The position numbers and the translations under genes are program-made. 64,000 bases of DNA from NCBI GenBank assembly GCA_040285855.1, contig JAUFOQ010000016.1, positions 558,001 to 622,000 of the forward strand, in the 5' to 3' direction. The notes beneath the pieces were generated by a model. That model had not been told where the DNA came from, searched no databases, and was given only the letters and a program-made list of their open reading frames with translations. Numbering within the stretch: position 1 is the stretch's first letter; each line of letters begins with the position of its first letter. This stretch comes from Eukaryota sp. GEM-RC1 (lineage: Eukaryota). Below are positions 13,113 to 63,620 of the stretch, one piece after another.

Positions 13113-13679
13113 ATAGAAACATTTGCTATCTGAGTTGCTTCTTTGTTATTAGAAAGACAGTGCTGTTGTCACTGTTTCTAAACTTGTCTTAAAACGGCAT
13201 CAATAACTATTGGCCCACTGAAACAAAGTAATCCCTCGAATCTAACCCCCAAACTGACTAACTTTAGGATGATTGATCCTGTAAATGATTCAATGATTGG
13301 CATTAATTGATTGTTTTAATAAGCAAGTGACTTTCAATGATCCTGATTATGAAAAACTTTCGTTGGAACAACTAGTTCTAAGTGAAATCTGATCTACTTT
13401 GAAGATAGTTTTATCAAAGATAGACGTATCACTTTCTGTACGAAAGTTATTTTTAAATATTTCAATAATTAACAATAACTTAAATTTTGAAGTCCCCAAT
13501 GGGGAAATTTGCTTTCACCATCGAATAGTACTAAGTAATAACCAAGTATTAAAATACAGTTATTTCCTTCTTCTTCAACACGTTTCTTCAATAAACCAAG
13601 GTCTTTCAACAGGTCTCCTCTTAAACATAAATGCAGTAGAAAAAAGGTTTTCATGTTGGGATTTGTCAAAAATAGAATC

Positions 13680-14075
13680 ACTAGGGAGGAGGAGAATACT
13701 TCAAGAACTATAGTACAAGAGCGCGTGATCTTAGGGAAAGGTATGTGAATCGATCCTGAACGACAAAGTAGAGATCACGACGAGATCGAAGGACAAATGG
13801 TTGATTGCGTGATATCAATCGAGGTGATTAGACGTGGAGATCGTAGTAGCAGAGAAAAGGGTGATGGCATTAAGAGAGGCGGAGGAAAAGTAAGATAGGA
13901 CAGAAGTAAAGCCGTGGCTTACTTGAGTACAGTACTCGAAAACAGGATAAAGTGGACGGTCCCCTTACCACGATGATCTGAAAAGACTTTTGTTATAGAG
14001 AGAGGAACTTCTAAAATTAGGAAAAGGTCAAAAAGAAATGTCACAAAACGTCATCAACAACTTCTGATATAGAAG
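13680..14075 (-). repeat. Diverged repeat, inverted copy of 6790-7190
   Basis: See 6790-7190. Confidence 0.8.
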
Positions 14076-14389: not shown

Positions 14390-15100
14390 AAAAACATTAA
14401 AATAAACACAAATACTAGAATTCAATATCATTAAAGCAACAATCATTGCCATTAAAACTCACATCAGCTTTTTCTTCATAAAAAACACTGAGAGCTAATA
14501 GAGCTTTTGAAATCATGATAGGAATTGTTTTAAATATTGTAAAAACAATACGATTCAACCAAAATTTGAAATCAAATTTCTTGTTCATTCTTTTTTGACC
14601 ACTTTCTCAAAATCAGAGAGAAAACAAAGAGCATCTCTACCAAGTCGACCATAAATTGAAATTGCAAAAGGACATAATTTGTACTCAACATGTCTAATAT
14701 GTTTGAGAGCAGTCAGTGGTTCATCATATTTGTTTCTCTTGTATTGTTCTGAAGAATTCAGTGGCGAAACTTCAGTTTTAGCATCCTTGAATGCACTTTT
14801 TTTGCAAACATCCACAGTAATCACATCAACAACGGTTAGTTCATCATTAACTGATGGAACTATAACATCAGCTCTTCGTTTACCAAAAGTCTTATCAGAA
14901 TCACTATTTTTTGAATTATTGATTTCCAGTGATCTCAACAGTGGCTCAACGAAAGATTCGATTTTGTAGGACTTACACATTGCATGAATTTGATCTCTAA
15001 CAGCATCATGAATACAAGTTCTATAAGTAATGAAACGATTGCAACTCAAAAGGTGAGAAAAAGTAACTAATTTACCACATTTGCATTGAAGCGAGTTTTC
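14390..15100 (-). mobile_element. 5'-truncated non-LTR retrotransposon, C-terminal zinc finger plus restriction-like endonuclease (CRE/NeSL type)
   Basis: CKCG...HLLSC...HDAVRD...EP...RADV...VVDV...E.YKRNKY...PFAISIYGRLG. Confidence 0.85.
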
Positions 15101-55398: not shown

Positions 55399-56796
55399 CT
55401 ACGAGAACATTTCTGGTAGCTTCGTTTTCCAATCATTGTAAAACTCCTTACAGTAATCAACATTTCCAAGGGAGTTTTCCAAATCAATAACAAATTTAAA
55501 AAGTACTGGATCGAATAATTTAGTTAAAATCCAATTCAAAACTTTCCTGCAGCCCTCCAAATCACTCAATCGAACATAGAACAAAGCAATAGACTTAGCT
55601 AACATTGGAACCTTTACTAATCCCAATGGAAGTTCTTCTAAAGCCCTAGAGTACACCTCCTTAGCTCCTTCTGCATCTTCAATCACGACTTCCAAGTAAG
55701 AGGCGTACATTATCCAAAGATAGACTAGTCGTTGAAAAGTAGGAGACGTGGAATCAATCTCGACTTTAATTGCCCTTTCGAACACAGAAACAACTTCATC
55801 CTTGGGTGAGCTCAATTCTTGTAAAATCTTAATCAAATCAAACCAATTATTAACATCATTTGGCTTAATCTCAGTACGATACAAACAGAAATACTTTCTA
55901 GACAGCAAAGCAACTGTCTGAATATCACTCGGATCTCCATACTTCCTCTCAATAAATAGCCACTCCTTACCTACTTTAGACTTGTCCTTCGTAGCAACAT
56001 TATCAATAGCAAACTTAAACGCACTCCTAGCTTCATCAAGAGAACCAATCTCAACATAGAGAGAAGACAACTCTAGAAAGATAGTAACATCAGCTAAGGC
56101 TTGGTCTAAGAATCCTTGGATGAAAACTTGAGCAAAGTAGATGGACTGTTTCAGGTCTTGAACTCGATGTTTGGCAAAAGACATTGCATCTCTAAATGAT
56201 TGAGCTTTAGGACGAGTGGAGATCATTTGCTCTAAGACTTTCCATACGTTGTCCACGTTATTCATTCTAAACTCAAAATCAGCAAAAGCAATGTAAGCAG
56301 AGTTAGGTGGATGCCAGGACATCCACTTGTTATAGACAGCATGTTGAGATTCATAAGGTTGATTAGATCTGCGGAGGACATCGAGATATATGATCCAGAG
56401 TTTATCTATTCTGGGAAGAGTGCAAGTAGCACGGGAGAAAACTTCAAGAGCTTCTTCAAGATTACCACCTTTTAGTTCGAGTTCAGCGTAGGCTAACCAT
56501 AGCTTTGGTTCTGTATAGAGAGTACACAGAGCTCTTTCCATGATACTACGCATACGACGGTGGTCTTGCATGGCTAATTCCCATGAAGCGTATTCAATCC
56601 AGGGTTTGGATTTGTTTGGAGATCTGCCAACATTGGCTTCGAACTCCCGACGACGTCTAACTAGGTAATCAGCAAGATCCACTTCATCGGTGATTTGTTC
56701 TTGAAGAGGACGAAAGTATATGTCAGCCTGACGTTCAAAGGCCTCTAGTAAGATTTGTTCAGCTGTGATCTGGATAGGAGCAGACTCATTGGACAT
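55399..56796 (-). CDS. CLF1: Crooked-neck/Clf1 splicing factor (HAT repeats); true 3' end probably frameshifted
   Basis: APIQITAEQILLEA, RRREFE..V, WIEYASWE...RMRSIMERAL, LPRIDKLW, WMSWHP. Confidence 0.92.
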   Translation of the reverse strand: MSNESAPIQITAEQILLEAFERQADIYFRPLQEQITDEVDLADYLVRRRREFEANVGRSPNKSKPWIEYASWELAMQDHRRMRSIMERALCTLYTEPKLWLAYAELELKGGNLEEALEVFSRATCTLPRIDKLWIIYLDVLRRSNQPYESQHAVYNKWMSWHPPNSAYIAFADFEFRMNNVDNVWKVLEQMISTRPKAQSFRDAMSFAKHRVQDLKQSIYFAQVFIQGFLDQALADVTIFLELSSLYVEIGSLDEARSAFKFAIDNVATKDKSKVGKEWLFIERKYGDPSDIQTVALLSRKYFCLYRTEIKPNDVNNWFDLIKILQELSSPKDEVVSVFERAIKVEIDSTSPTFQRLVYLWIMYASYLEVVIEDAEGAKEVYSRALEELPLGLVKVPMLAKSIALFYVRLSDLEGCRKVLNWILTKLFDPVLFKFVIDLENSLGNVDYCKEFYNDWKTKLPEMFS

Positions 56797-56935
56797 CAGC
56801 TAATAGCTTACGGATGTCAAATAATAGTGACCCGATTAGATCACTGGAGGGAGAGAATTATGTAGAAGTTCTTTTCAAAACTTCTGGTCTACCATTTCCT
56901 CTACCATGTTCATCTACAATATGAATCATGTTCAA
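56790..56935 (-). ncRNA. Candidate Fanzor omega-RNA scaffold
   Basis: Consecutive hairpins overlapping and following the Fanzor stop codon, including a 9-bp stem with a GAAA tetraloop. Confidence 0.45.
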
Positions 56936-59900
56936 CACAGCGTTCACGTTGCGGTTCCAAAGACATCCACACTTTTGCAAGTGAGTAATCCATGTCTTAA
57001 AACCGTTGGTGTTTTTGCTCTTCTGTAAGGTCTGGGATTTTGAACACGGTGTTTGTTTTCATTAATTCCATGTTCATTTTTCAGCACACACTTGTGACAT
57101 CGAGCGCTTGTTCTATATTCATCTATCAGCAGCACCCGATAATGATGCTTTTTGAACATTGCCCTGTGACCAACATTCTTTGTTGGTGCTTGATTCTTGA
57201 ACATAGTCTGCTTCCAATCTCCCATCACTATCACTGTATTTTCTGGACCTCCAAACTTCTCTTTCTCGATTCAAACCTTTCCTTGGTCATATACCTCTTT
57301 AGCTTCATTATTCTTATTTCGTCTGATTGATAGTACGATCCCATATTCAGAGAGAATTCATACTTAAAGCTTTACAATATGCCAAGAAATCATCGTGATC
57401 AAGGCCTTTACTAGAGTGTTTACTTAGTTGTTTTTCCCACTCTTCATTAGTTTTTCCTCCAATGATCCATGACTTTTTACTCTCTCTGAAGAACTTCTGC
57501 TGATCTTTGCCAGGAGTCTCTCTATTTCTTTGAGGGGCTGTCAATCTTTTAAAATGGAACTTCTTGAGCTCCTTCTTTATTCCAGGTTTCTCAGGTGGAG
57601 GATCTTTTGGGGGTTCCAAGTTGGTTGTGCGGTAACTCGCGGCTCTACCTTTGGCTTTGCGTCGTCTTTCATTGTTCAGACGTTTATGGTAGCCACTGTT
57701 ACCACTCTTTCCATTGTCATTTCGCCACTCCTCCCACTCTAACTTAGTATAAGAGGGTTCTTTGGGTTTTGAATTTTGAATTTTTGGCGGACCGTATTTT
57801 CTTCTTGCTCCCATCATCAACTGATCTCTTATCCCAGGGTCTCCACAGACGATAGAGGAACTCTTCAGTAATTCTACTGGTACATCTGTGATATACAGGT
57901 CGTTGTCTACCATATTTCTACTAGGCAGACGATTTCTTCCAATTAAATCGTTTCTTATTAAACTTAGAGAAACGCTTATTCCATTGGTGCGAATTGAATG
58001 GTTAAAGGAATAGCCCTGTTGACGGGAAAGCTTTCTTTGAGGTTCTAAAGATCCAACTCCAGTACTGATGTTGGTACTTTTCGAGATTTCCATGTAGTGT
58101 TGCTTCACTATTCGAAGGAAACCTGTGGTCATTGGGAATAAGAATCCGATAGAGAGCTCCTGTGTCAATAAAGATATGACCAGGAGATTCAGAAGTTTTC
58201 AGAGGAAAGACTTTGTAAATGGAAGGTTTAAAGCACTTCATATCTTCTGGTTTTCCATCTGCTGCATCAAAGTCATGAGATGACATTTGAGTGACTTCTG
58301 GCGTCAGCAATTCCACCCCGTGCATTAGAGACATTGAATAAAATATGAAATTTTGTGGATATTTCTTACACAGATATGATGCACTCTTTAATCCATGTGT
58401 TTCAGGAATAAATAGATGTATGTTTTCGTAGAGCATCAACAGTTTGGGGAGTAGTTCAAATTGCAATTCACGAATAAGTACCGAATGCTCTTTGAATTTT
58501 TCAAGTAGAAGATTAAATACGTTTAAGAGATCGTATTTAGGGTACTTGCTTTGACACAAGGCATTAATAACCTCTCTGAGAAAACAGTGAAATATCTCAT
58601 TTTTTTGTGTTTTTTAAATTTTCAATATTCTTTTTAATTTTTTCGCTTCCACTAAATTGGTCGAAGTAGCAATTAATGAATTTAATCACGTACGTCACCC
58701 AGTGTTCTTTAATATTCACTTCAAGATTATCAATGTATTCAGCAACACTGTACTTTGTAATTCTACCCATAGCTGGTAAGTAGAGATTTTCTGGAGTTCC
58801 AGATTCATCAGTATCCGCCATTGTAGAACGATAGTATTCTTTAAAATACTCATTTACTTTTTCCTTCGAGTACGAGACAGCAGGAGGAATCGAACTAAAT
58901 CTACCTTGCATAGAAATTACTTCAGAATTTAAATCTGATGTCTGCTCCTCTAAAACAGACAAAATATTGGTCAAAAGTTTAGTATAATCAATTTGATTTC
59001 TACCAATTTGTGATAATAGAACAGCCTCACTGAGCTCTTTCTTTGAGCCTTCAATCATTTATATTTTTGATTTTTCCATGGCAAGCAGTTCTTCCATGAC
59101 AGGCAGAATTTCTGTTAGTATTTTAGAGAATTTATCTGTTATGTGAACACTTTTGTTAGTAAATTTAATTTTTTCTGTGTCCATTGCCTCAAGAGTAAAG
59201 GGCTCATGGATCGTGACAACCACTGATACAGCTCATGATTATCTAGGGATTGCTTATACTGATTGACAGTAAACCCTTTCAGAAATTGACAACCATGTGA
59301 CATCAATTGGTCATGTATTATTACATAATGACGAATAATTTCTGAAACTTCGCCAAAATGTAATAATTTACGTAAACCTAACTTTTTAGTTTTAAAGAAA
59401 GGCAAAGCAGGATTTGGTCCTTGAAAAACTGAAAAGAGTTTCAATGTAAGAATTACAGTAGCTGACTAATTCACCTCTTCCTTCAGCTGTTTCCATCAGA
59501 GTAGAATTTGATCTGCTGAGTTTAGATTTTCCTTCAGCCAGAATACTTAAAGAAACACTATTTAGACTGGTGCCAAATTTTGAAGTTAAATTTTTCTTAG
59601 CAAAAGAACAGCAGTCTAAGGAAGTGGAATTACCAAATTTATGAGAGATGGTAGAGTTCCAAGAGGCTGAAAGAAAAGTAAGTGAAATTATATTGTCTGT
59701 CTTATCTTCGTGAGTGACGGTAGTATCAATCTTTAAAATTGAAGCTCTTTTAAGAACATATGGTAGATCATAGAAATCGGAGTAAAAGCCTGAAACAAAG
59801 TCTGGTGAAAAGAATTGAAAAAATTGAGAAAATTAGAAATCAAAAGGAACTCAGATTTAAATGAAAAAATATTAACAGCTTCAGACTCTAATGCAGAAAT

Positions 59901-60519
59901 ATCTCCAACACTAAGCAAATAATTATCTACATTAAAAATCTTTTCATTTTTAAAATAACAAAATGAAAAAACCAATCATGACGATCGGAACCACAAAACT
60001 TCCTTCGTCAACTTCATTGAGAGTTTCGATATCAACTACTAAAAGGGTGGACATTTTGGCAGTTGATTTGACTCTTAAAGATAAATTCACTAAAGGTGTT
60101 GCTTTAATTTTTTCGTCAATGTTGATACCACGAGAACGTACTTTGTCAAGAGTGTTTCCACCCTTATATTCATTTTCAAAATAGGTTTTTGGAATTTCGG
60201 ATCTACTCAAGGATACTGTATCAGAATCAGAAGTAGAAGACAAAATATCCGTCTTGGAAAACGGACACGGCGGTAATTCTAGTTCAGATGCTAGACGCTT
60301 TCTGTCAGAAATTGAATTTGATTTTGCATAAGAACTACACTGTATGGAATTTTCTGGAGTGGATCGCTTTTGTCGAGTGTTACCACAAGACACGGATCGC
60401 CGCGATATTAACTCCTCAGGAGTTCCAGATATCAAGCTGTATGCCTCTTCTCTGAAACTGCCCTGGGTTGTTAATCCTGGGTTAGGGCCGTAGTCCCCAC
60501 CCAAATCCACTGTACTCAT
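56858..60519 (-). mobile_element. Fanzor1 (eukaryotic TnpB-like) nuclease gene, multiply frameshifted, probably inactive; 5' extent inferred
   Basis: FNHSIRTNGISVS; RuvC-I CGDPG (D at 57839-57841); VMGDW; RuvC-II IDEYRTSARCHKC; HGLLTC..C; RuvC-III WNRNVNAVLNM; GRP; TAA at 56860-56858. Confidence 0.88.
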
Positions 60520-61065
60520 CAGACATGGAAGAAAAGAAATTCACAACAGTTCTATAGTAGTTCTAGTTGTGTGTAAATTGAGTGCATTGCTAAACATACT
60601 ACATGTAGTATTGGCTTTTCTTTTAAAATGCAGAGTTTATTTGCAACAACAAAAATTGACTTTATCACATATACTTCCCACACAAAAATTTCTTGTGGTC
60701 TAATTTAAGAGTCTGAAACAATGTTTGAAAATTTGAGGATCGTAATGTGGTCCTCTAATCATTTGGGGTCACATTCCGCTCTTCAAATTTTAAAACGATT
60801 GTGTCAACAGAGCAACCTTGTAGGCATATACCGAAATATAAGTACATCAATAATACGTAATCTGATTGAACTATGATTGACTGTAAAGTTCAGTCCAACT
60901 ATTTGTTCAGTAATTTTAGTGACCATGTAGACATCTCATCACAGTGAATTCCTGCATTTATTTATCGATAGTTGTGTCAGTTAATCTTAGCATCCGCTTA
61001 AAAACACTGTTGAATGACTGACTTTCTCGAAAATGGAATTCACTATCTACCACTATCACTGACTC

Positions 61066-62631
61066 ATGTATCGAGCTAAGTCAGAATCTTTTTCGCCTCA
61101 CCAAACAAGCAATAGCATCAACTCCCTTCACTCCATTCAATCCATAGATGGGAAAACATGGTTTGGTGGTATTGTTGTTCTTGTCGCTTCGGTCGGGCTG
61201 ATCCCGTTTTCTTCTGTCTCGTCTCTACTACTGTTTTCTCCCGTGATCCCAATGCCTCCCCAAACAAGCAATAGCATCAACTCCCTTCACTCCATTCAAT
61301 CCATAGATAGGAAAACATGGTTCGGAGGTGCTGTTTTTGTGGCTTCGGTTGGGCTGATCCCGTTTTCTTCTGTCTCGTCTCTACTACTGTTTTCTCCCGT
61401 GATCCCAATGCCTCCCCAAACAAGCAATAGCATCAACTCCCTTCACTCCATTCAATCCATAGATAGGAAAACATGGTTTGGAGGTGTTGTTCTTGTTGCT
61501 TCGGTTGGGCTGATCCCGTTTTCTCCTGTCTCGTCTCTACTACTGTTTTCTTCCGTGATCCCAATGCCTCAATCTCAATGGAAACGGAATCTCGCAGAAG
61601 ATGGAGATGTTGAGACTAATCCCGGACCTCGCAATTCTCATGATCGACAACGATTGTCTTCAGACGTTTTTTCAGAGAAACCAATTCGTAGAGAAACTAC
61701 AACAACTCGATTTTTGCCAGTACCCAAATCTTATCATGTACGCTTTCATAGTCGTTGTAAGATTTATCATTCTTGTTTAGCACATTTAATGAAATCATCT
61801 GGTACAATGGATAACTTAGTAATTTGTACATGTATGGAACATTTCGATCCCGCTGTTGCTGAATTTCAACCAAAAGATTTGCCTCCTCCCACAGTTTCTC
61901 CTCCTGCAAATTACATTCGTCAATCTTATCTTAATGAAATACTGAATTTTCATTACAGTAATTTTCCTGGTACATTACCGTCCATGTACAAAATTGACAA
62001 TTATATTGCAGCAAAACATTATGGTACCTTTCTACATGATACCAATCATCACTTGTATTCTATTAATGATCCAATTCTACAGTCAGTTCAAAAATACGTT
62101 TCTGAACTGGACACAATGAGAGTTCCTGTCATTGATCCTGATTTTAAAATTTGTCCAATTTTCTGTGACTTCATTTCTCCTTGCCGTTATTGTTTACTTC
62201 CTGGTCATTTCGCCAGAAACTGTACTTTACAGTTTACAGAAAAAACTAGCCTTGTTTCTATGGATCTCTCTGTTGTGTATAAAAATTTCTCACATGATGT
62301 ATTGCTCAACCCTGAAGCACTGTTGGACCTTTTATTAACTATATTGCATTTCCATTTGCACACAAACAAACATACTGACTTGTATGATTCTCAAACAAAT
62401 ACATTCACTTTGGAAATGTTCGGTCGTAATTCTGATTGTATTTCAAAAGCAACACATGAAAAGGAAGAAATCCGAAACAAAATTTCTGCAACTTATCCAC
62501 GTCTAGTTTCGGATATTAACTATGTCTCGTCTTTACTTTCAGATGACCAAGATGGAGATGACGTTGGTGATGTAGATAATTTTGGTGATTTCGTGGCGAT
62601 AGATGATGATGCATATAAGATGATCATATAA
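61066..62631 (+). CDS. Probable mobile-element polyprotein: 3 hydrophobic repeats, 2A motif, Cys/His region with CCHC knuckle; coding may continue to about 63270 across frameshifts
   Basis: WKRNLAEDGDVETNPGP (motif 61600-61629); CRYCLLPGHFARNC. Confidence 0.7.
   Translation: MYRAKSESFSPHQTSNSINSLHSIQSIDGKTWFGGIVVLVASVGLIPFSSVSSLLLFSPVIPMPPQTSNSINSLHSIQSIDRKTWFGGAVFVASVGLIPFSSVSSLLLFSPVIPMPPQTSNSINSLHSIQSIDRKTWFGGVVLVASVGLIPFSPVSSLLLFSSVIPMPQSQWKRNLAEDGDVETNPGPRNSHDRQRLSSDVFSEKPIRRETTTTRFLPVPKSYHVRFHSRCKIYHSCLAHLMKSSGTMDNLVICTCMEHFDPAVAEFQPKDLPPPTVSPPANYIRQSYLNEILNFHYSNFPGTLPSMYKIDNYIAAKHYGTFLHDTNHHLYSINDPILQSVQKYVSELDTMRVPVIDPDFKICPIFCDFISPCRYCLLPGHFARNCTLQFTEKTSLVSMDLSVVYKNFSHDVLLNPEALLDLLLTILHFHLHTNKHTDLYDSQTNTFTLEMFGRNSDCISKATHEKEEIRNKISATYPRLVSDINYVSSLLSDDQDGDDVGDVDNFGDFVAIDDDAYKMII
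61102..61570 (+). repeat. In-frame tandem repeat, 3 copies of about 156-159 bp
   Basis: Copies start at 61102, 61261 and 61417. Confidence 0.95.
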
Positions 62632-63279
62632 GCATTTTGTATTGGAGATGTCGAGATCATCATCTCCAATACAAAATGCTTATATGATCAGTTCAATGCA
62701 ATTAGGGACAATTCCTGGTCCTCTCGTCTTATATCTCGGTTCTTTTATTGTTTTAAACTTGTTCTGCACTATGACAATGGGTCAACTTTTATTGAAAGAA
62801 CCAATGAAAATGGTGAGACAGCCAAGTACACTCCTCTGGAAGACATATTCATTTACCATCATAAAAGTATCAATATTTTGATGTTCCAATTGGCGTATTG
62901 TGCCTACTATGAACATAATTCGAGACCTTCTATTAGCAAGTTTTGTATTGATGCTTTGACTTATTTGGTGTCATACAGTTTTAGTGTGTCGTCTGAATGC
63001 CACCTGCGCTACCAGAAATTAGCTAAAAGGTACATGAGCTGGCAAAATTGTATGATCCAAAAATCGACGACACTGTGGTCACATCACTTTCTCCAAAATA
63101 AAAATGATAGGGCTTTATTGCGTACCGATCAAAGTTTCCTAGATAGTGCTTTAATGTTTCGATTTATGTGGTCTTATAAAAGAGTAATTTATATTCTCAC
63201 TACGGTAACATTCGCCGAAAATAATTTCTGTAATTTTACGGTTGCCGAATTCTATGGATACCGGTATTTGTAAATAATA

Positions 63280-63620
63280 TACTACTAAACGACAATCTGG
63301 TGTCATTTAAACAACACCGATAACTATCAAATCTTTCAACAGCTTTGTGCTCATAAAAGGAACTCACAGCTAATGATGCTTTGGAGATGATTAGGGGGAA
63401 TAGTTTTTAAAACAGTAACAACGGTCCGATTCAACCATAACATATGATCAAAACGTTTGTACATTCTGTTGTTTACAATGTCTCTGAAATCGTTTCGAAA
63501 ATTCCATGCACATTTTCCTAAGCGGTCATATATTGATACATCAAAAGGGCATAATTCATATTCGACTTGTTTTAGAGCATATCTGGAAAATACACATTCA
63601 TTGTATTTTTTGTATTGTAT
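63280..63620 (-). mobile_element. 3' end fragment of an RLE-type non-LTR retrotransposon
   Basis: YALKQVEYELCPFDVSIYDRLG is homologous to ALKHIRHVEYKLCPFAISIYGRLG of the 14585-15049 ORF. Confidence 0.8.

Follow-up and report, generated by a model that had tools for sequence, protein, structure and literature searches.

A probable Fanzor1 right end, with a likely relic omega-RNA scaffold, on the start codon of the splicing-factor gene CLF1 in a skoliomonad-like metamonad

On the minus strand of a 64,000-nt stretch of DNA from Eukaryota sp. GEM-RC1 (here called the window), a Fanzor gene ends shortly before the start codon of CLF1, a gene of the spliceosome and essential in yeast, and a series of hairpins occupies the junction. 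The question raised by this locus is what these hairpins are and how the start codon of a host gene can lie within one of them. The original prediction had taken four stems at 56790-56935 for a candidate omega-RNA that runs into CLF1. We located the strings of hairpins 1, 2, and 3 again at their minus-strand positions (Table 1), with the CLF1 ATG (56796-56794) inside hairpin 3 (56818-56792) as proposed, and the spacing from the Fanzor stop codon (TAA, 56860-56858) to this ATG, given as about 60 nt, is 61 nt. The explanation that we favor, and hold to be fairly probable, is that the flagged DNA holds the right end of a Fanzor1 element that is broken and that ends on the CLF1 start codon, with hairpins 2 and 3 as its likely omega-RNA scaffold.

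Table 1. Features of the CLF1-Fanzor1 junction and of the putative element, in window coordinates
Feature	Position	Strand	Remarks
CLF1/crooked-neck splicing factor ORF	55399..56796	minus	465 aa, intact
Predicted guide	56777..56791	minus	~15 nt, start +/-2 nt; CLF1 codons 2-7; placed from the predicted scaffold end
Candidate right target-site copy, ATGTC	56792..56796	minus	Native-type Met-Ser start of CLF1
Hairpin 3, likely SL2 (scaffold-closing stem)	56792..56818	minus	CLF1 ATG in 3' arm
Hairpin 2 with TCC leader, SL1	56826..56848	minus	7 bp, loop TAATCG (hairpin alone, 56845-56826)
C/T-rich tract, candidate transcription-start region	56846..56860	minus	13/15 pyrimidines, 7 C; background 0.26%; putative function
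Fanzor1 pseudogene	56858..59430	minus	Six frame changes, one in-frame stop, RuvC-III Asn
Hairpin 1	56864..56885	minus	GAAA loop; in last Fanzor codons; outside conserved scaffold
Relic family-B polymerase 3'-5' exonuclease domain	59430..60060	minus	Pfam PF03104, E = 5.9e-7, above cut-off; Pol delta, E = 0.0015
189-aa ORF	59950..60519	minus	DIE motif resembling ExoI at its end; probably the N-terminal portion of one long gene with the exonuclease relic
Candidate left target-site copy	60514..60526	minus	11/13 nt match the opening 13 nt of CLF1; ATGTC block exact; pyrimidine tract before it

Each stem was compared with 1,000 dinucleotide shuffles of segments chosen around it and with background segments of the same length. 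Hairpins 1, 2, and 3 had folding z scores of -3.9, -2.7, and -3.7, and were equaled or bettered by 49, 44, and 47 of 2,414 background segments, respectively (about 2% each). The weak stem at about 56905-56932, which had been counted as part of the cluster, drops out: its segment (56935-56900; z = -1.3) folded at the level of chance, with 112 of the 1,000 shuffles folding as well. The flagged interval as a whole was modestly structured (z = -2.3; 128 of 2,410 background segments fold as well), the region 56780-56960 gave a z score of -1.8, and an Rfam search of the flagged RNA returned no significant family (best E = 1.9). Folding energy by itself is weak evidence here; the strong evidence comes from position and from comparison with other loci.

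The gene called a Fanzor in the original prediction is indeed a Fanzor1 and, as went unmentioned there, a pseudogene. An HMM of 18 full-length viral Fz1 proteins matched it at positions 6 to 633 of 642, from 59414 to the stop codon, and its best match among structural chains was the Parasitella parasitica Fanzor1, PpFz1 (PDB 9cf0, as described by Xu et al. 2024, PMC11423790; chain 9cf0_P, E = 2e-17), with SpuFz1 matching at E = 8e-10. The RuvC-I motif is intact (CGDPG at 57847), the RuvC-II Glu, in its rearranged place ahead of the zinc finger (DE-Y/F-RTS followed by CxxC), is present as DEYRTS in DEYRTSARCHKC and aligns with PpFz1 and SpuFz1, and TNG stands at the place aligned with the TDG motif of the WED domain. 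On the other hand, the RuvC-III Asp (WNRD) is replaced by Asn (codon 56950-56948, AAC), the frame changes near 59190, 58610, 58030, 57365, 57270, and 56975, and an in-frame stop lies at 59061-59059, and no single ORF of 600 to 850 aa was found, though full-length homology is kept. Errors of assembly could underlie some of the single-base shifts (the named skoliomonads were assembled from nanopore data with short-read correction), but near 57270 and 59458 several codons are missing compared with sister proteins. Four sister proteins, with 84 to 92% identity, are encoded on three contigs of Eukaryota sp. GEM-RC1, all of them fragments or broken before RuvC-II. Judged by its sequence, this copy is homologous to Fanzor1 but its nuclease is dead. 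GPNP at the Fanzor start was considered as a 2A peptide and rejected, as it aligns with ordinary Fz1 N termini.

A basic, Pro-rich insertion of ~75 aa past RuvC-I (~57800-57575, minus strand), common to proteins P0025 and P0027, sits at the position of the FRI insertion of PpFz1. In the ESM Atlas, P0025 groups with DUF8286/TNB clusters, and P0030 had no match.

Comparison with other loci identifies hairpin 2 as SL1, the first stem-loop, conserved among omega-RNAs of Fanzor1, with its TCC leader, 7 bp, and 6-nt loop ending in CG. A viral test set independent of the window was obtained by fetching 121 loci by their RuvC-III motif, of which 108 resembled Fanzor and 98 were distinct and had sufficient DNA. 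The SL1 pattern (TC[AC], 7 bp, and a 6- to 7-nt loop) followed the conserved RP codons in 74 of these 98 Fz1 loci, compared with 1 of 98 in the upstream control, and its distance from RP was 30 to 45 nt in 72 of the 74; in the window it is 45. A second viral set, which partly overlaps the first, had SL1 in 35/42 loci versus 0/42 in the control. When a score trained on 30 viral SL1s only was applied, hairpin 2 ranked first among 127,954 window positions. The leader-stem-loop pattern, the loop of which was widened by one position after the window had been seen, had a single match over both strands (128 kb), located 12 nt past the Fanzor stop. None of 119 chance matches to leader and loop had at least 6 pairs. 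A covariance model also ranked hairpin 2 first, but with E = 1 over the window, so that hairpin 2 is not significant without the positional prior. Covariation counts (98.6% paired, 7/7 pairs with double changes) were not taken as proof because the rows had been selected for pairing, and the viral comparison set is a single clade with a TCA leader and an SL2 longer than that of the window.

Hairpin 1 was rejected as SL1, having scored 5.7 bits versus 16.0 bits for hairpin 2 and ranked 22nd. It spans the codons RPEVLKRTS, and a comparable hairpin was found at that place in 2 of 48 distinct viral loci. Of the cluster first proposed as omega-RNA, hairpins 2 and 3 are retained, and the coding hairpin 1 is set aside along with the weak stem. 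The scaffold does not overlap the 3' end of the Fanzor ORF, as had been expected of it, and begins past the stop codon.

Searches of metagenome and viral contigs gave 0 exact or near-exact matches to the SL1 hairpin. Close Fanzor relatives were sought in viral contigs, with one chance locus and then none, and in prokaryote genomes, with none. A combined Fanzor-plus-SL1 pattern, which proved too loose, returned 1 viral and 118 metagenome rows, none of them a Fanzor by tblastn. Within the giant viruses, the Fanzor1 loci (L002-L122, L242-L283) have in common a covarying SL1 as well as a closing stem that reaches to a Mariner-like end. In three of them (L244, L264, and L274), the RNAs are compact and the closing stem shows what appears to be a compensatory change. 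Their alignment is a ready basis for an Rfam-type family, and Rfam has none for the window's RNA.

Conservation in the viral loci ends directly past the terminal motif in 70/74, this motif closes a basal stem in 63/70 folds, and the closing stem begins 7 to 10 nt past SL1 in 58 of the 70 measurable loci. Hairpin 3 begins 7 nt past SL1, and its 6-bp basal stem has pair probabilities of 0.98 to 1.0. Since hairpin 3 fits a scaffold-closing stem, the scaffold likely ends near 56792, with the CLF1 ATG inside, and the viral closing-stem rule would place this ATG in the scaffold 3' arm and the first guide nucleotide at about 56791. The predicted guide, as read from the scaffold end and the viral-locus comparison, would be CLF1 5' coding sequence, which bears out the earlier expectation of a guide from the CLF1 5' region. 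It has no further match with up to 2 mismatches in the window, and the minimum-energy fold lengthens hairpin 3 by 5 bp into it. A role of the guide as an antisense regulator of CLF1 was rejected, as guide and mRNA are of the same sense.

The CLF1 ORF matched human CRNKL1 (chain 8c6j_S) with an E value of 1.6e-66, and HAT repeats and the N-terminal QITAEQ motif are present. Its nearest relatives are two skoliomonad metamonad orthologues (455 and 467 aa; 52% identity over 96 to 99% of the length), no other lineage-specific CLF1 paralogue was found among 18 matches at E < 1e-40, and the host is a skoliomonad-like metamonad. Met and APIQ are separated by 4 residues in the window CLF1 and by 4 and 5 in the skoliomonad orthologues; with an N terminus of orthologue length, the ORF is therefore whole and starts where expected, and a hidden intron or a truncated N terminus is excluded by the orthologue alignment. 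No start is commoner in the window than ATGTC, which is found at 6 of 26 ORFs of at least 150 aa versus 145 of 2,338 ATGs, and at 8 of 20 hand-picked starts, and the CLF1 start looks native. For the Fanzor1 reRNA of SfAV, a target-site duplication was predicted within the scaffold, with a guide of ~15 nt beyond it (Yoon et al. 2023, PMC10711439). Given this prediction and duplications of the MCi-2 type (see below), a native CLF1 start is compatible with its place in the stem, and the CLF1 ATGTC is probably target-site sequence built into the scaffold, by analogy with what has been published for Fanzor1.

It is plausible that the CLF1 promoter lies within or against the Fanzor end, as the original prediction required. 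A C/T 15-mer weaker than that in Table 1 stands before the ATG at 7 of 15 host starts (background 7.3%), and 8 of 15 are without it. At CLF1, in an observation made post hoc, the C/T tract is absent directly before the ATG and present before SL1. None of 34 viral leaders is as pyrimidine-rich as the window tract, no ATG occurs between 56895 and 56796, and divergent host genes lie as close as 93 bp to each other. A start of the CLF1 mRNA near the scaffold 5' end is predicted as the simplest, albeit post hoc, reading of this arrangement.

Directly upstream of the Fanzor1 pseudogene lies the relic exonuclease domain. In P0047, a 199-aa fragment of a sister copy, one frame runs from the exonuclease through YCLKD into the Fanzor1 N terminus (Fz1 HMM positions 4 to 63), with 84% identity to the exonuclease piece of the window and 79% to window positions 59456-59118. 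The family thus encodes an exonuclease-Fanzor1 fusion, which is seen in this one fragment and in the colinear relic of the window. DIE near 60033 and YDLPY near 59769 are present in the window, the ExoIII YCLKD is present in P0047 and lost in the window, and the acidic motifs of ExoI, ExoII, and ExoIII were never found together in one intact protein. The 189-aa ORF, for which Pfam and ESM Atlas searches found no protein family, would also be a member of the element, and a single gene of ~1,200 codons before decay probably extended from ~60519 to 56858 on the minus strand. Such a gene span would put the left end of the element near the candidate duplication at 60526-60514, the exact ATGTC block of which ends where the scaffold end is predicted. 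This match is statistically weak, with 5 others of such quality in 128 kb and 1 among 19 control starts, and we regard it only tentatively as the left copy of a target-site duplication; alternatively, 60526 is merely the start of the long gene itself. A 7-nt repeat at 60054 was rejected as the left duplication because it lies inside a stop-free frame. As for terminal inverted repeats, no inverted copy of the right end was found in the window; one may have decayed or may lie outside.

Several other features were observed in the window. At 61066-62631 (plus strand), a 521-aa ORF, a single cluster member, has three 52-aa hydrophobic repeats followed by a DVETNPGP motif, which we take to be 2A-like, and a weak zinc knuckle. 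Perfect inverted repeats lie at 62621-62690 (30-nt arms) and 2400-2462 (29-nt arms), and the palindrome CTACATGTAG occurs three times (9561, 45946, and 60599), apparently in intergenic DNA, as a possible promoter element. A multi-copy repeat family (14585-14980, ~2875-3092, 11600-11885, and 63275-63574) carries a 131-aa ORF with 22 cluster members, presumably a restriction-type endonuclease of non-LTR retroelements. A Gag-like zinc-knuckle ORF (Pfam E = 4e-5) was found at 8380-8901 on the minus strand, and the repeats at 6800-7500 and 13380-14070 form a degenerate inverted duplication of ~700 bp.

The right end of the window element works like those of PpFz1 and SpuFz1, while the nuclease does not qualify as an active enzyme. 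So far as PMC11423790 describes them, the PpFz1 RNA and that of the window are alike by eye, both being short, with a TCC leader, a 7-bp SL1 (common to the published Fz1 RNAs), a loop T-T/A-ATCG, and one SL2 (hairpin 3 as the candidate in the window) followed by the guide, and both proteins have a large insertion past RuvC-I. The two differ in that their stem sequences are unrelated and that the window has a pseudogene, an N-terminal exonuclease domain, and a predicted scaffold end over a host start codon. In the account of SpuFz1 (Saito et al. 2023, PMC10432273), the scaffold sits past the stop codon and before the end of the element, as is likely in the window, and its RNA has by eye the same TCC leader, an SL1 loop ending in TCG, and a single SL2, with a linker of ~6 nt compared with 7 nt up to hairpin 3 in the window. 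The same account includes ghost omega-RNA loci of SpuFz1, i.e., RNA loci without a working nuclease, and 30-nt inverted repeats of Spu-1, whereas none were found at the window element. Two Parasitella Fz1 RNAs listed in its supplement 5 (rows 58 and 59) have by eye ~13 nt in common in the guide numbering of the structure paper, which may be a fixed guide.

As described by Bao and Jurka (2013, PMC3627910), MCi-2 is, like the window copy, a Fanzor1 element without recognizable TIRs, but MCi-2 and CRe-1/2/3 have long duplications, with a fixed and a variable part or of variable length, whereas the window has one weak candidate and no transposase or Helitron ends were identified in it. The SfAV element (PMC10711439) is described as intact and expressed, with clear TIRs, in contrast to the decayed window copy with no TIR found. 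ISC and IS605B elements (Kapitonov et al. 2016, PMC4810608) are presented as RNA-guided-nuclease elements inserting at an ATG-containing target (N|ATGA), but they are prokaryotic, encode IscB or TnpB, and make no duplication; the wording "start codon" is absent from the main text of that paper.

The point on which other readings mainly turn is where the element ends. A real SL1 could go with an element end at 56797 or farther upstream. SL2 would then be the short inner AGCT/AGCT stem or deleted, the guide would begin with the ATG or immediately ahead of it, and GACATC would pair with GATGTC by chance. Hairpin 3 may indeed be such a chance stem, because random sites close a 6-bp stem within 30 nt in 443 and within 100 nt in 1,784 of 9,115 cases, i.e., at 5 to 20% of sites; moreover, the PpFz1 structure, as described in PMC11423790, shows 4 bp of SL2 only, and ORFs at the viral loci start 1 to 35 nt past the scaffold in 8/43 and inside it in 0/43. 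However, the position of hairpin 3 within the top 2% of background speaks against this reading, as does the linker, which with the inner AGCT stem as SL2 would be 17 nt long instead of the 6 to 10 nt of viral and published Fz1 RNAs, and we consider an end upstream of the start codon unlikely.

The opposite displacement is conceivable as well, with a right end reaching to 56790 (GATGTCCA), an insertion a few codons into CLF1, and a start codon donated by the element, the ATG of which rescued the frame as an exaptation. Reading the stem as far as 56790 takes one mismatch, and an exact 6-nt repeat, ATGAGT, is next at both junction candidates, but such a donation requires that an ATG of the element be in frame and as far from APIQ as in the orthologues, when ATGTC is already the commonest start of the host, and it appears highly improbable. 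Domestication of the scaffold as a control element, with a transcript either trimmed to an omega-RNA for the Fanzor of other copies or kept long for CLF1 translation, would agree with SL1 and SL2 being fully paired despite many lesions in the ORF, with the AUG within a stem, and with the existence of related copies. We give it very little weight nonetheless, as the named sister proteins are all broken in the way noted above, and, at 84 to 91% protein identity among copies, neutral survival of a 50-nt RNA would be possible.

Under the favored explanation, a right end whose closing stem includes the native CLF1 start, hairpins 2 and 3 would encode a compact omega-RNA scaffold of ~60 nt (56852-56792). 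The CLF1 ATGTC would serve as the 3' arm of its closing stem, and the predicted guide would be the 15 nt of CLF1 that follow. The element may have inserted at the native ATGTC and regenerated ATGTC as target-site sequence, and, when active, its ribonucleoprotein would have cut the empty CLF1 allele, favoring the element. The insertion would also have separated CLF1 from its old promoter, so that the C/T tract at the 5' end of the scaffold would now be the likely start of the CLF1 mRNA, which would carry the scaffold as a structured 5' untranslated region (UTR), with the CLF1 AUG as the first AUG. As no working nuclease is made by this copy, the hairpins would most likely be a relic carried along as a passenger and tolerated by CLF1, not a regulator. 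A broader proposal, which we hold to be quite unlikely as it stands, is that the exonuclease-Fanzor1 family targets ATGTC as the commonest gene start of its host, enters behind the promoter, makes the start codon anew to serve as closing arm of the scaffold, and re-expresses the gene from the omega-RNA start, one transcript then serving as guide RNA and as mRNA of an essential splicing factor.

The locus combines a real relic omega-RNA with a dead nuclease: the system is a known one, of which this copy is a relic, and the architecture is new. Our full-text search of open-access papers, with a minority of their supplements, found no Fanzor in metamonads. The word "exonuclease" is absent from the main text of the Fanzor surveys checked, and no title describing an exonuclease-Fanzor fusion was found; nor did the literature searched hold a precedent for a host ATG inside a scaffold stem. 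The short rule of TC[AC], 7 bp, and a loop ending in CG locates the 5' ends of Fanzor1 omega-RNAs in giant viruses and fungi as well as in this protist. The fusion of Fanzor1 with a polymerase-type exonuclease resembles hand-built genome-engineering designs, and the exonuclease could trim the ends left by cutting. If the predicted geometry is true, a spliceosomal gene would be transcribed through a guide-RNA scaffold, a natural OMEGA RNA serving as host 5' UTR, and the insertion would be a case in which the target gene is kept alive by the element.
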